Positions 9,567 through 61,790 of a stretch of DNA of 64,000 nt are shown piece by piece. This DNA is from Nanobdellota archaeon. GTDB lineage: Archaea; Nanobdellota; Nanobdellia; Woesearchaeales; UBA9642. The number at the start of each line of letters is the position of its first letter. The stretch's first letter is position 1. The DNA lies in the NCBI GenBank assembly GCA_021813435.1, contig JAKAKR010000013.1, positions 120,107-184,106 of the forward strand, read 5' to 3'. The position numbers and the translations under genes were made by a program. The notes beneath the pieces are model-generated. The model saw only the letters and a list, made by a program, of their open reading frames with translations, did not search any database and was not told the DNA's origin.

Positions 9567-9778
9567 GCCTGAAGAGATGCAGCGGGGTTTAACAAGTTTA
9601 CGCCGTGTCTGACTCTGGTGAAAATTTCACTGGCGTTCGTAGTCGCCATTCGCAGAATAATGTACTTTTTAATGGAAAATTGTCCCATTTGTAATTCTGG
9701 CCAATTTTCTCGCATAGACAATTATCCTGCTCATCTTAAGGCGACTCATATTTTCACCAGAGTGCATTCCCGAACAAA

Positions 9779-10810: not shown

Positions 10811-12496
10811 TCACTCATCATAATCATTCAAATTGATCTGTCCCTTGCGCTTATTCTCTTTTACCTCAAGATGCTGCGGGTCAAGATCCTGTCCGACCTG
10901 TTTTTTGATGTCGAGCGCGATCGCCTTTCCGATGATCTGCGCAAGTGTTGCAAGGTCAACCTTCTTTACTGCAGCAATATCCTTGATCCTGTTATTGAAT
11001 AATTTTCGTGCACGCATGCGACCAATGCCCTTAAGCTGCAGGAGCGGGATGAGTTCCTCGCGCACCCCGTAATTGAGGCGGAACCGCAGTTTTGCAATAT
11101 CCTTGACAAGTGGATGCATCTTCAATAGTTTTGCGAGTTCCTCAGACGAATAGAGGAGCCAGTCTGCAAGTTCGCGCTTGCTGTTCAATTCTCCCGGCGT
11201 CACATTGAACTGTTCCAGGAGGTATTCCTCATCTTTTTCATCAAGCCATTCCAGAAAGAACTGCGTGGTCTTAAGCGAGGACAGGAATTCGTCATATTCG
11301 TCGCTGAATGGCTCGGCGATTGGAGTGAGCAGTTCTTCCTCGTGCTGGTTCATGAATGCGATGATCCGATCGACTTCTGCAACTTTCACCCGCAGGAGCG
11401 GGCGCAATTCCAGGCATGAAGAGATAAGGTGTGTATAAGAGAGTGGCGTGACTTTCTTTTCTGCAACAGCGGATTGGGCAATGGATGCAGCAGGGGATGC
11501 GATAGAGAATGCCTTTTGCATGTGCACAACCAGAAAGTTTGCAGTGTACGGGTCAAGGTATAATTCTGAGACGCGCCGTCCAACGATTGTTGCGGCAAGC
11601 TTGCGATCACTTGATGCGTCATGCGCAAAAGCGTATTTGAGCGCAGAGACAAAATCCGAATCAGCATCCTGCGCTGTTTTTTTCTCGATAAGGATAAATC
11701 CCCACTCCTCAAGTTGCTCAAGCATGTTCCGGATGATCTTGCGCAGGCGGTTCATGTCGCCGTATTCGTGCGCGTAAAAGGTCTTCTCGAAGAATTGCTC
11801 AAGTTCATAGGTTGTTCTGACGAATGCTGATGCGATGAGGCTCAGGATTGCAGTGCGCATGATGGGCTCGACTGCAAGTTTTGAGACTATTGCTTCAGGG
11901 ACTCCGGAGAGGTATTGCGCGATGAGTTCGCGCTTGTGCGGTTCTGAATCTGCAATGACAATTGCCTCGCCATGATCATCAAAACTTGGACGCCCTGCGC
12001 GGCCTGCCTGCTGTTCATATTCCAGGACCGGGATGTATTGCATTCCCCAATTGCCAAAGCGTTTGAGGTCGCGGATGATGACGCGATATGCCGGCAAATC
12101 AACACCCATTGCAAGGGTTGGCGTTGCGACAATGACCTTGACAATGCCCTTGCGGAAATGCTCCTCGATGAGATCGCGCTGTTTTGCCACAAGTCCGGAA
12201 TGATGGAATGCGACCCCTGCAAGAGCGATATGCGAGAGCCGCTGGCACTGTTTTGTCGGACTGTCAAGTGCATGCAGGATATCCTCAGAAAGTTTTGCAG
12301 TCGCCATTTCATCAATCAATTTTTTCTTTCGGAACTGGACTGCGATCTTTTCTGCAAGTGACTCTGCGGATTTCTTAGTGTTCACAAAGACAATGGCCTG
12401 TTTTTTGAGAAGGATGGTGTCAAGAGCGATATTGATACTTCCTTCACTGGTCTCCTCGGCAATATGCAAAGTCCGCGGCATATCCTTAGGTTTCAT
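10811..12496 (-). CDS. hel308: Hel308/Ski2-type helicase lacking the first RecA domain (RecA2 + WH + ratchet + HhH only)
   Basis: Motifs VAFHHSGL, VIVATPTLAMGVDLPA and QQAGRAGRP are present, plus a C-terminal HhH (LLQLKGIGRMRARKLF). There is no Walker A or DEAH anywhere in the ORF. The start codon is 14 nt from the 3' end of tRNA-Ile. Confidence 0.75.
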   Translation of the reverse strand: MKPKDMPRTLHIAEETSEGSINIALDTILLKKQAIVFVNTKKSAESLAEKIAVQFRKKKLIDEMATAKLSEDILHALDSPTKQCQRLSHIALAGVAFHHSGLVAKQRDLIEEHFRKGIVKVIVATPTLAMGVDLPAYRVIIRDLKRFGNWGMQYIPVLEYEQQAGRAGRPSFDDHGEAIVIADSEPHKRELIAQYLSGVPEAIVSKLAVEPIMRTAILSLIASAFVRTTYELEQFFEKTFYAHEYGDMNRLRKIIRNMLEQLEEWGFILIEKKTAQDADSDFVSALKYAFAHDASSDRKLAATIVGRRVSELYLDPYTANFLVVHMQKAFSIASPAASIAQSAVAEKKVTPLSYTHLISSCLELRPLLRVKVAEVDRIIAFMNQHEEELLTPIAEPFSDEYDEFLSSLKTTQFFLEWLDEKDEEYLLEQFNVTPGELNSKRELADWLLYSSEELAKLLKMHPLVKDIAKLRFRLNYGVREELIPLLQLKGIGRMRARKLFNNRIKDIAAVKKVDLATLAQIIGKAIALDIKKQVGQDLDPQHLEVKENKRKGQINLNDYDE

Positions 12497-12509
12497 AGGA
12501 AGAAAATAA

Positions 12510-12623
12510 TGAGCCCGGGGAGATTTGAACTCCCGACCTCACGATCTCTGTATGGATACTTTCGTATCAACAGGACTGACACATTTATCAGTCGTGCGCT
12601 CCACCAGGCTAAGCTACGGGCTC
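12510..12623 (-). tRNA. tRNA-Ile (anticodon GAU) with a ~40-nt intron after position 37
   Basis: Folded by hand. Acceptor GAGCCCG/CGGGCTC; D stem GCTT/GAGC; anticodon stem CACGA/TCGTG with loop CTGATAA; T arm GGGAG-TTCAAAT-CTCCC; discriminator A; no encoded CCA. Confidence 0.85.
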
Positions 12624-12638
12624 GAATGAATAGATAAG

Positions 12639-12746
12639 CGCCTCCGGGCAGGATCGAACTGCCGACCTCAAGATTGCTGTCGCAAATGTTTAAGAAAACA
12701 CCTGCGTTGTTAACAGTCTCGCGCTCCACCACTAAGCTACGGAGGC
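12639..12746 (-). tRNA. tRNA-Asn (anticodon GUU) with a ~36-nt intron after position 37
   Basis: Folded by hand. Acceptor GCCTCCG/CGGAGGC; D stem GCTT/GAGC; anticodon stem CGAGA/TCTTG with loop CTGTTAA; T arm GGCAG-TTCGATC-CTGCC; discriminator G; no encoded CCA. Confidence 0.85.
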
Positions 12747-12770
12747 GTATCCTAGCGAATTCGGGGGGCA

Positions 12771-12780
12771 TTTATAAATA
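12771..12780. promoter_or_regulatory. near-palindromic TATA-like box between tRNA-Asn and the ncRNA candidate
   Basis: tttataaata lies 25 nt upstream of the tRNA-Asn 5' end (minus strand) and about 19-28 nt upstream of the first helix of the candidate ncRNA (plus strand). Confidence 0.5.
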
Positions 12781-12798
12781 TTTTTGTTTCGAGAAGCT

Positions 12799-12990
12799 GT
12801 GCCGAAATCAGCATCACCATCTTAAGGGCAAACTGCATTACAGCATCCTGCAAATGCGTCGCGAGGTTTGGTCACTAGCGTTCTCAAATCTCTGTGAGAG
12901 GAAGTTCCATACGGGAACGCAGCATCATCCAGGATCAATGCGAACAGTTTGCAGATGGTGACCGCAGCGAAGCGAGGATGATTTCGGCAC
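12799..12990 (+). ncRNA. candidate structured RNA of unknown class (strand tentative)
   Basis: Three colinear, perfectly Watson-Crick helices: 12799-12810/12979-12990 (12 bp), 12815-12822/12953-12960 (8 bp) and 12828-12835/12945-12952 (8 bp). Inner hairpins include GTTCC-ATACG-GGAAC. A TATA-like box lies upstream and a short T-run (12995-12998) downstream. No convincing ORF. Confidence 0.4.
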
Positions 12991-13008
12991 AAAGGTTTTG
13001 AGGATAAA

Positions 13009-13018
13009 CTATTTAAAA
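13009..13018 (+). promoter_or_regulatory. TATA-like box for the DUF5989-SxtJ-carbamoyltransferase operon
   Basis: ctatttaaaa lies 21 nt upstream of ATG 13039. Confidence 0.45.
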
Positions 13019-13038
13019 CAAGGAATAACCAGGTAACT

Positions 13039-13200
13039 ATGACGCATAACCGACCGCTTCTCAGGGAATTATGGGACTTTCTGAAGGTACGCAAGAAGTG
13101 GTGGCTCACGCCCATTATCATCATGCTCATCATTGCCACGCTGCTCATTATCGCAAGCCAGAGCAGCCCGGTCAGCCCATTCATCTACTCATTGTTCTAA
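13039..13200 (+). CDS. DUF5989-family small membrane protein (53 aa, missing from the ORF track)
   Basis: Translated by hand: MTHNRPLLRELWDFLKVRKKWWLTPIIIMLIIATLLIIASQSSPVSPFIYSLF*. The LWxFLxxRKKWWLxPI...PFIY[ST]LF pattern matches my memory of the small protein encoded beside SxtJ/carbamoyltransferase genes. Confidence 0.7.
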   Translation: MTHNRPLLRELWDFLKVRKKWWLTPIIIMLIIATLLIIASQSSPVSPFIYSLF

Positions 13201-22998: not shown

Positions 22999-23166
22999 TA
23001 GTTGCGGACATAACTACGCTATCATTTAGCGTCTTCTCGCTCTCATCGAAGTGTAAACGGAGTATTGTCATCTCCGAAGGAGCCAACCCTCTGACAATGT
23101 TCTAAAATTGTCGGATATTCGCTCGCCTTAGGACGCTAAATGATAAGAAACTTTTGTCTGCAACTA
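22999..23166. repeat. 168-nt element bounded by 35-nt imperfect terminal inverted repeats (28/35 matches)
   Basis: Left arm tagttgcggacataactacgctatcatttagcgtc. Reverse complement of the right arm tagttgcagacaaaagtttcttatcatttagcgtc. The interior contains nested or alternative hairpins (ATTGTCA/TGACAAT, CTCC-GAA-GGAG). It lies between the stop at 22972 and the next TATA-like box (23179-23188). Confidence 0.6.
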
Positions 23167-61392: not shown

Positions 61393-61790
61393 ATCAGAGG
61401 AGTATATTTCATTCTTGAAAAGTGCGTTCAAAATATTTTCCTTACGCCATGCCGCTCGCATTCGTATCGCGCTTTGATTGCTGACAGTTATTCTTGGAAT
61501 ATTTTATGTCAGCTTGCAGAAATAATCCTTAAGATGCTCGCACATTGGCATTGGCGTATTTTTTGAACACGCCCCTTTCACAACAAGAAACTATTTAAAC
61601 CAAAAGAATTCTTAAGAAAGCGGGGTATAGCATGATGCGATGCATATGTATCATGCATATACAGTCGATCATAACAACTATTCTTGCAGGCGCAATTTTC
61701 CTCAAGTCACAAAAAGGTATACTACTTACAAAGTAAGTATACTAGTTCTTTTCAAAACAAGGCAATTCTTAGACGATAAAAAGCAAAACC

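Follow-up and report, generated by a model that had tools for sequence, protein, structure and literature searches.

A rod-like inverted-repeat element beside a tRNA pair of a Nanobdellota archaeon and the conserved fold of its family

The intergenic region between a tRNA pair and a glycan locus in a Nanobdellota archaeon (GenBank assembly GCA_021813435.1, contig JAKAKR010000013.1) contains a rod-like sequence of about 190 nt, and the question arises whether such a fold marks a structured RNA or an element of different origin. The window analysed here is a stretch of 64,000 nt of this contig (positions 120,107 to 184,106, forward strand), and coordinates given without a contig refer to it. A preliminary description, made from the letters of the window, has placed the candidate at 12799-12990 and has considered a reduced SRP-like RNA, a novel sRNA and a MITE-like inverted repeat. 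Further copies and an empty site in a congener support the last of these readings, as do the terminal inverted repeats and a 9-bp duplication. We regard it as highly probable that positions 12795-12994 (+ strand) represent one copy of a miniature inverted-repeat transposable element (MITE), which is 200 bp long, non-autonomous and non-coding. In the following, this element is called W, its relatives in the same genome (G000, 1.41 Mb) are called A, D, C and E, and G002 denotes the genome of a congeneric sister species. H0 stands for the outer helix formed by the terminal repeats, and R1 and R2 are two covariance models of the family.

The element at 12795-12994 and its insertion site

The extent of W has been defined by its absence from the orthologous spacer of G002 and by its sister copies, and all of its parts are given on the + strand. 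The left terminal inverted repeat (12795-12810, AGC followed by TGTGCCGAAATCA) is conserved in copies A, D and C according to the copy alignment, while other subfamilies carry GGGGTTGTCGGAAAAT, GGCTTAGTAGAAAAT and similar sequences at this place. It provides the 5' strand of H0, a perfect helix of 13 bp (12798-12810 with 12979-12991, TGTGCCGAAATCA/TGATTTCGGCACA, 13/13 complementary), whose 3' strand belongs to the right terminal inverted repeat (12979-12994, TGATTTCGGCACA followed by AAG), as seen from pairing and the copy alignment. Further inside, the 5' strand of H1 (TCACCATCT, 12814-12822) pairs at 9/9 positions with 12953-12961, and in a sister subfamily H1 reads TTGCC/GGCAA instead of TCACC/GGTGA, which amounts to two compensatory pairs. 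A 5-nt bulge TAAGG (12823-12827) follows, at the position at which the alignment of 43 family cores has TTAAG or AATGT, and leads to the 5' strand of a third helix (GCAAACTG, 12828-12835, 8/8 with 12945-12952). The 3' strands of the third helix and H1 fill 12945-12961 (CAGTTTGC, A, GATGGTGA) and have been assigned from the helix pairing. Between H1 and H0, a 3' insert (CCGCAGCGAAGCGAGGA, 12962-12978) forms a small hairpin and creates a three-way junction; it is kept in 4/4 copies of the subfamily, and at the corresponding position the mini-hairpin of other subfamilies and distant genomes covaries and has GAG at its end. The interior (12836-12944) is specific to the subfamily of W and A, being common to copy A only; it is partly paired in the fold, has no family loop AGGATTGCAAGTG and is not matched by R2.

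The three nested perfect helices of the preliminary description are thus real and slightly longer than noted there (13, 9 and 8 bp instead of 12, 8 and 8). Folding of a 201-nt stretch has confirmed the rod as the minimum free energy structure, with -74 kcal/mol (z = -4.0) on the + strand and -78.1 kcal/mol (z = -5.2) on the - strand, and none of 200 shuffled sequences folded as well on either strand. That both strands fold equally well indicates an inverted-repeat origin of W. The element has no coding capacity: its 200 bp are covered by mutually overlapping open reading frames alone, which the ORF list confirms as spurious, as had been supposed.

The insertion site has been resolved by comparison with G002, which aligns to 12350-12794 and to 13006-13151 with only 2 nt between the blocks, so that the stretch 12795-13005 is missing from the orthologous tRNA-to-gene spacer. 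The empty site reads ...TTTATAAATATTTTTGTTTCAAGAGCAAAGTATTTAAAA... and holds a single target 9-mer, GTTTCAAGA. At the same spacer, the window reads ...GTTTCGAGA, the element AGC-TGTG...CACA-AAG, and GTTTTGAGGATAAACTATTTAAAA, and has two copies of the target, one on the left (GTTTCGAGA, 12786-12794) and one on the right (GTTTTGAGG, 12995-13003, assigned from the G002 comparison). To judge from this alignment, the single 9-mer of the empty site became two around W. The duplication has decayed, as the two copies agree at 7/9 positions. The three bases outside TGTG...CACA are the tips of W itself, because identical recent copies elsewhere end exactly at GGGGTTGTCGG...CCGACAACCCC. Empty sites in G002 have also been found for copies A and D. 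Based on the 7/9 duplication, the 86% identity to the nearest sister and the lack of an identical twin, W appears to be an old copy that probably no longer moves. Four sequencing runs contain this DNA, all of them DNA runs of one mine-drainage study, and they may be the source of the assembly; their contigs break inside W, as expected of a repeat, and hold no joint across an empty W site.

The signals that seemed to belong to an RNA gene are explained by the neighbourhood. On the left lie two intron-bearing tRNAs on the minus strand, which have been detected by Rfam only (no tRNA was called here by ARAGORN) and whose anticodons have been read from the Rfam alignment. The first (12510-12623, 54.8 bits) has the anticodon GAU and a 41-nt intron after it, and the second (12639-12746, RF00005, 52.7 bits) has the anticodon GUU for Asn, followed by a 37-nt intron. 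The TATA-like box described upstream of the candidate (TTTATAAATA, 12771-12780) is present, but it is not the promoter of the candidate RNA: it is found unchanged at the element-free site of G002 and is located 24 nt upstream of the 5' end of the tRNA at 12746, and therefore predates W and serves this tRNA. The TTTT run, previously placed at 12995-12998 behind the last helix, actually occupies 12996-12999 within the right target duplication and is no terminator of W. On the right side, a 53-aa gene (13039-13200, +, from the ORF list) has a TATA-like box of its own (TATTTAAAA, 13010-13018), which is conserved in G002; the gene has been assigned to DUF5989 by the Pfam tag on an identical gene in another assembly. 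W has been inserted into the gap of ~27 bp between the TATA box of the tRNA and that of the divergent DUF5989 gene, leaving both intact.

The comparison with known RNAs has refuted the proposed SRP-like or RNase P-like nature, for which a loose resemblance of motifs by eye (AGG..AGCAG for SRP RNA, GAGGAAGUUCC for the CR-I region of RNase P RNA) had been the reason. Rfam gave no match over W at gathering thresholds or at E<=10, and over the locus and ten sister loci only tRNAs appeared at E<=10. Full-length genuine RNAs are encoded elsewhere, namely a canonical archaeal SRP RNA at contig C16:4944-5216 (115.3 bits, gathering score 96.5) and a canonical RNase P RNA at contig C11:48058-48375 (119.3 bits, gathering score 84). 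A canonical SRP RNA elsewhere together with no model match at the locus had been named beforehand as speaking against an SRP-like RNA, and both have been found. Moreover, W is multi-copy, is absent at the G002 site and yields no BLAST match in 12 congeners. We consider it next to impossible that W is a reduced SRP RNA or RNase P-like RNA.

Relatives of the element and the family fold

A search for extra copies, as proposed in the preliminary description, has revealed relatives scattered over the genome, some family copies being identical at different loci. BLAST against the 1.41-Mb genome returned three further matches to W: copy A (contig C15:2375-2569), which is full-length and 86% identical, and copies D (contig C7:64695-64898, E = 5e-7) and C (contig C3:33937-34134, E = 6e-6), which share only the ends of W. 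The ends of all four align across the copies. A shorter fifth relative, copy E (contig C7:179785-179924), has a perfect CGCATAACC duplication on both sides. The identical recent copies that end at GGGGTTGTCGG...CCGACAACCCC are located at four loci of G002 and, in G000, at contigs C8:7330-7483, C16:1246-1399 and C13:54841 to the contig end, so that C13 terminates in a family element; perfect 9-bp duplications at such copies are TAAAATTTG, GAAAAAAGA, GATAAATTC, CTATAAAAG and CTTATTTTA. An nhmmer search of the own genome gave 38 match rows, counted as about 33 loci; adding W, its relatives A, D, C and E and the element at 22999-23166 brings the family to roughly 40 copies or ~0.4% of the genome. 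All of the copies checked for gene context (27/27) are intergenic, in every gene arrangement and with no orientation bias; at contig C1:38524-38634, for example, a copy separates two tandem genes.

Three of these members lie on the minus strand elsewhere in the window. The core at 9639-9748 (R2 75.8 bits) is placed inside a 14-bp inverted repeat (9612-9763) and has the outer helix ACTCTGGTGAAAAT/ATTTTCACCAGAGT and the 3' insert, with no clear target duplication, and a further core has been found at 61446-61555 (R2 43.2 bits, E = 3e-7). The element at 22999-23166 is a diverged relative of 168 nt with 35-nt inverted ends; it shows the family H1 (TTTAGCGTC/GACGCTAAA) and GAGCG motifs, and R2 matches it weakly (23025-23140, 20 bits, E = 0.055). 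Another copy adjoins the orc1/cdc6 gene (contig C2:91979-92089, minus strand, R2 88.4 bits). The nested repeats upstream of orc1/cdc6, CTGGAGAAA/TTTCTCCAG and AAAATGTTCAC/GTGAACATTTT, have also been considered as an ORB-like origin; matched by sequence, they correspond to H0 and P3 of the family copy.

Two observations concern the arrangement of repeats along the contigs. At contig C2:90416-90525, the 3' strand of H1 runs directly into what appears to be the start of a second copy (TGCCATCAATGCGCAAACATC), so that tandem family members are possible. Contig C14 (11,325 bp) bears the same sequence of ~120 nt at both ends in inverted orientation, and this sequence recurs where C12 starts and where C15 ends. 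An invertible or duplicated segment could explain it, as could an assembly-graph artefact; the contig ends that look similar are short overlaps of about 120-150 nt.

Beyond the own genome, the family has been followed with R1, built from six G002 loci that match the interiors of D and C, and with R2. With R1, 24 matches came from G000, 41 from G002 (which thus has at least 41 copies) and 9 from G006; a few other genomes contributed one to three each, and 7 of the 12 congeners gave no match. Among 150 further genomes from across the order Woesearchaeales, in each of which up to 25 candidates were scored, R2 has matched 8, several with many copies (at least 11 in G119 and at least 6 in G076). 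The spread of the family across the order is patchy. Copies of distant genomes keep the whole plan, with ends that fit GG(C/G)N5-7GAAAAT and the covarying 3' mini-hairpin, and perfect 9-bp duplications occur there as well (CTCAGTAAC in G144, TACCAAATC in G119). Perfect 9-mers flank 6 of 43 cores, compared with 1.3% in controls with shuffled flanks. A clear outer repeat has been recognised in only 13 of the 43 cores, and most copies are therefore not demonstrably mobile; other subfamilies than that of W show 10/10 outer repeats, and the 70% of cores that lack a recognisable one still keep the fold. From one subfamily to another, the terminal repeats take very different forms (TGTGYCGAAATCAT, GGGGTTGTCGGAAAAT, GGCTTAGTAGAAAAT, GTATTTACTTAG and others), and yet the interior plan stays the same. 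In a remnant of ~55 bp in G002 (L286:3306-3358, contig C2:~154805-154857), a left family end adjoins a right one almost directly; this remnant is a deletion derivative of a GGGGTTGTCGG-type element.

Since neither R1 nor R2 matches W, its membership rests on the shared outer module and not on the core. W has H1 and the bulge without a matched core, and the outer module of H0, the 3' hairpin and H1 is common to D and C, which do carry the family core. The membership chain has three steps: W shares its ends with D (E = 5e-7) and C (E = 6e-6), the centres of these two copies are shared with the 160-nt forms of G002, and the latter share their ends and P3 with the basic form. The centres of W and A have diverged from the family, and the outer module has been kept.

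Most R1 matches correspond to a basic form of 110 nt. It starts with H1, a helix of 9 bp (e.g., GTTACCGTC/GACGGTAAC), which is followed by a 5-nt bulge (AATGT or TTAAG) and by P2 (GCGAGCATC/GATGCGAGC), whose tandem G.A/A.G pairs are kept in 40-42 of 43 copies. Past P2, an internal loop of variable sequence leads to P3, a helix of 11 bp that is capped by the 13-nt loop AGGATTGCAAGTG with the palindrome TTGCAA at its centre. In longer forms, extra hairpins are inserted at the loop centre, exactly between TTG and CAA, and a subset including W adds the outer helix H0 as terminal inverted repeat and the small 3' hairpin between H1 and H0. In the loop, positions 3 and 11 covary (AGGATTGCAAGTG vs AGAATTGCAAATG, e.g., in L233, G000 contig C1:43461-43570). 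As TTGCAA is self-complementary, two family loops could in principle pair with each other. The tandem G.A pairs have been compared with a K-turn, which has been rejected because the alignment reads no 3-nt loop beside a C-stem in front of them, and a mini-ORF starting at the ATG of the bulge has been discarded, since the frame behind this ATG is not conserved; the 43 family cores have no conserved ORF.

The pairing itself is strongly maintained. Among 43 distinct cores, 96.7% of the cells form standard pairs, compared with 34-48% when the partners are slid by 1-3 columns; both sides have changed in 23 of 26 pairs, and none of 500 shuffles reached any of the pairing measures. P2 shows the same covariation pattern even though it lies outside the model behind the alignment. 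The compensatory changes sought in the preliminary description are therefore found, in the family cores. Only 16 of 1118 cells hold a G.U pair, and in H1 and P3 these are matched in number by A.C, which exceeds G.U at one edge of P2 only. Such low and balanced numbers fit pairing at the DNA level or in both strands; the conserved G.A/A.G, however, is strand-specific.

The evolution of resident copies can be followed at 15 copies of G002 whose flanks both map to one G000 contig, with positions confirmed by flank alignments: 5-6 of them have a G000 family copy at the same intergenic spot. In five such pairs, differences affect 68 of 260 stem positions and 111 of 283 unpaired positions; among the changes that affect base pairs, 28 are compensatory, 4 are wobble changes and 6 break the pair. 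In some of these copy pairs the drift is confined to internal loops, and in others a whole helix has been swapped, so that both conversion between copies and point changes seem to have occurred. Judged by these substitution patterns, the pairing in resident family copies is under selection.

Mobility and function of the family core

The selected fold raises the possibility that W is a functional structured ncRNA gene of a paralogous family, i.e., a mobile RNA gene whose ends and duplications reflect its spread. The very strong covariation in three helices, the conserved tandem G.A/A.G and 13-nt loop, the retention at the same spot in two species with the predominance of compensatory over breaking changes described above, the fold kept in cores without outer repeats and the lack of a conserved ORF all agree with it, and a plain selfish-element view needs less than 5-6 of 15 G002 copies with a same-spot partner and a kept fold. 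However, W itself is devoid of the conserved family centre and unmatched by the family models, the apparent promoter and terminator beside it are the box of the tRNA and the duplicated target, the copies have no preferred orientation relative to genes, the rare G.U pairs with their A.C balance in H1 and P3 better fit DNA-level or two-strand pairing, and the family is missing from most congeners and hence not essential. Such an RNA gene is in our view an unlikely explanation of W.

A fold that is conserved while the sequence is not, together with few wobble pairs, is also expected of a folded single-stranded DNA recombination site as in attC, and W might correspondingly be an integron attC-like site, a REP/RAYT repeat or an IS200/IS605-type palindrome. 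The 3' insert of W contains GCGAAGC, which the literature describes as a very stable DNA mini-hairpin and which would suit a site of this kind. Yet attC, REP/RAYT and IS200/IS605 make no 9-bp duplication and have no terminal inverted repeats, both of which are present here; the copies are single, scattered and in both orientations with no cassette arrays, and the outer end of H1 (GTT...AAC) has the reverse of the R''/R' order of attC. We thus rate a recombination site as very improbable, well below the RNA gene.

Reading W as a MITE copy, one may consider how the family has moved. The inverted ends, the strict 9-bp duplication and the AT-rich, promoter-like targets suggest mobilisation by a DDE-type enzyme acting in trans, by either cut-and-paste or copy-in. 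In this scheme, a trans-acting transposase would make a 9-bp staggered cut to which the element ends would be joined, and our best guess is that the element would require, in cis, a folded single strand of either DNA or RNA. Copies of long residence may also have been retained for the hairpins that they form between genes at the level of transcripts.

The search for a corresponding transposase has covered six families (rve, DDE_Tnp_1, DDE_Tnp_IS240, Transposase_mut, DDE_Tnp_ISL3 and ISLre2), among which there is no candidate common to the copy-rich genomes. An rve gene occurs neither in G000 nor in G002, with sub-threshold matches only inside the IS6-type genes of G000, and DDE_Tnp_1, IS256 (Transposase_mut), DDE_Tnp_ISL3 and ISLre2 are absent from both genomes. 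The search with DDE_Tnp_IS240 has identified IS6-type genes in G000 only and not in G002 (contigs C3:58255-59184, C12:20419-21348 and, at the contig start, C10:162-581). Two of these copies are 91% identical over 930 bp, and according to a self-BLAST of G000 the IS6-type pair is the sole repeated coding element. They have been rejected as partner, as their ends are unlike the family repeats and they are present in G000 only, and the single DDE_Tnp_1 gene of G006 has been dismissed as well, having no family-like ends. In G002, the terminal-repeat motif occurs only as pairs about 152 bp apart, and of three lone repeat-like sites one is a tiny deletion derivative and the other two are chance matches that lie within ORFs. 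A scan of metagenome contigs with GGGGTTGTCGGAWAATAG returned the source contigs of G002 itself and ~20 unrelated matches, near a rough estimate of chance, and the ORFs between apparent repeat partners in these matches are not transposase-like. The scan of genome contigs with GAAGCGAGGATGATTTC gave 106 matches where ~70 are expected by chance (an estimate), and the two archaeal ones inspected are unrelated. Because the genomes are MAGs and repeats break contigs, the partner may be unassembled, unbinned or borne by a virus or host.

The compensatory fold across distant genomes and at syntenic copies, the free variation of the terminal repeats and the lack of a known accompanying transposase keep a further reading in play, in which the family core is a functional folded nucleic acid. 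It would be either a structural signal, read in place of sequence by an unknown archaeal transposition system, or a mobile RNA or DNA module kept by the host at fixed intergenic sites across speciation. We put this forward tentatively, as a possibility that we hold to be somewhat less probable than its opposite.

Recognising W as a MITE copy removes a false ncRNA candidate from the locus and traces its apparent promoter to a neighbouring gene's TATA box and its apparent terminator to a duplicated target. The rod-like fold is a signature of the family and not of an SRP-like RNA. A single family now unites the nested inverted repeats upstream of tRNA-Ser, the orc1/cdc6 repeat, the repeat at 9612-9763 and the element at 22999-23166, and it occupies ~0.4% of a 1.4-Mb DPANN genome. 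With its compensatory evolution, its syntenic retention and no recognisable transposase, it offers a test case for mobility in reduced, symbiont-like archaea and bears on the question whether hosts use mobile-element hairpins.

Comparison with known systems

The family is a new, unusually structured member of the MITEs, which is the ordinary explanation for the W locus; a limited literature search has turned up no account of this family or its conserved fold. Reviewed examples of MITEs are the SM elements of Sulfolobus, QMITE2 of Coxiella and the Correia elements of Neisseria, and MITE transcripts form stable stem-loops while the target duplications fade over time (PMC10969869). A census has listed a Woesearchaea genome among the MITE-densest archaea, with 105 elements per Mb (PMC11602168). 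Like prokaryotic MITEs, the family is 110-200 bp long and non-coding, has terminal inverted repeats, a target duplication of fixed length and AT-rich intergenic targets, and is characterised by many copies, predicted stable stem-loops and duplications that fade with age. It differs from usual MITEs in that no parent IS with matching ends has been found for it, its terminal repeats diverge widely while the interior architecture is constant, which is the reverse of the usual situation, and its interior helices evolve by compensatory change, most copies being without ends and still keeping the fold.

The 9-bp duplication and ends beginning with GG are shared with the insertion sequences that duplicate 9 bp (IS10/IS50 of IS4, the IS903 group of IS5, IS1, IS256 and ISLre2). 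What we take to be the IS903 inverted repeat resembles GGGGTTGTCGGAAAATA at ~11 of 17 positions, which is a lead only. Unlike these insertion sequences, the family is accompanied by no DDE_Tnp_1 (IS4/IS5), IS256 or ISLre2 transposase gene in G000 or G002. With archaeal SRP RNA (RF01857) and RNase P RNA (RF00373), W has the rod-like fold and short motif look-alikes in common, whereas it is unmatched by their models, half their length, multi-copy, mobile and absent from the sister species.

ERIC/IRU and REP/BIME are dispersed intergenic repeats of bacteria, the hairpins of which are kept by compensatory substitutions and some of which are located at orthologous sites; the present family resembles them in being dispersed and intergenic, with compensated hairpins that are in part syntenic. 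ERIC is confined to enterobacteria and vibrios, and REP elements, to our knowledge, have neither terminal repeats nor target duplications and travel with RAYT genes. Both ERIC and REP are devoid of the tandem G.A motif, the 13-nt loop and the 9-bp duplication of this family. Integron attC sites, finally, form cassette arrays of the same orientation without target duplication, whereas the family copies are single, occur in both orientations and carry the 9-bp duplication.
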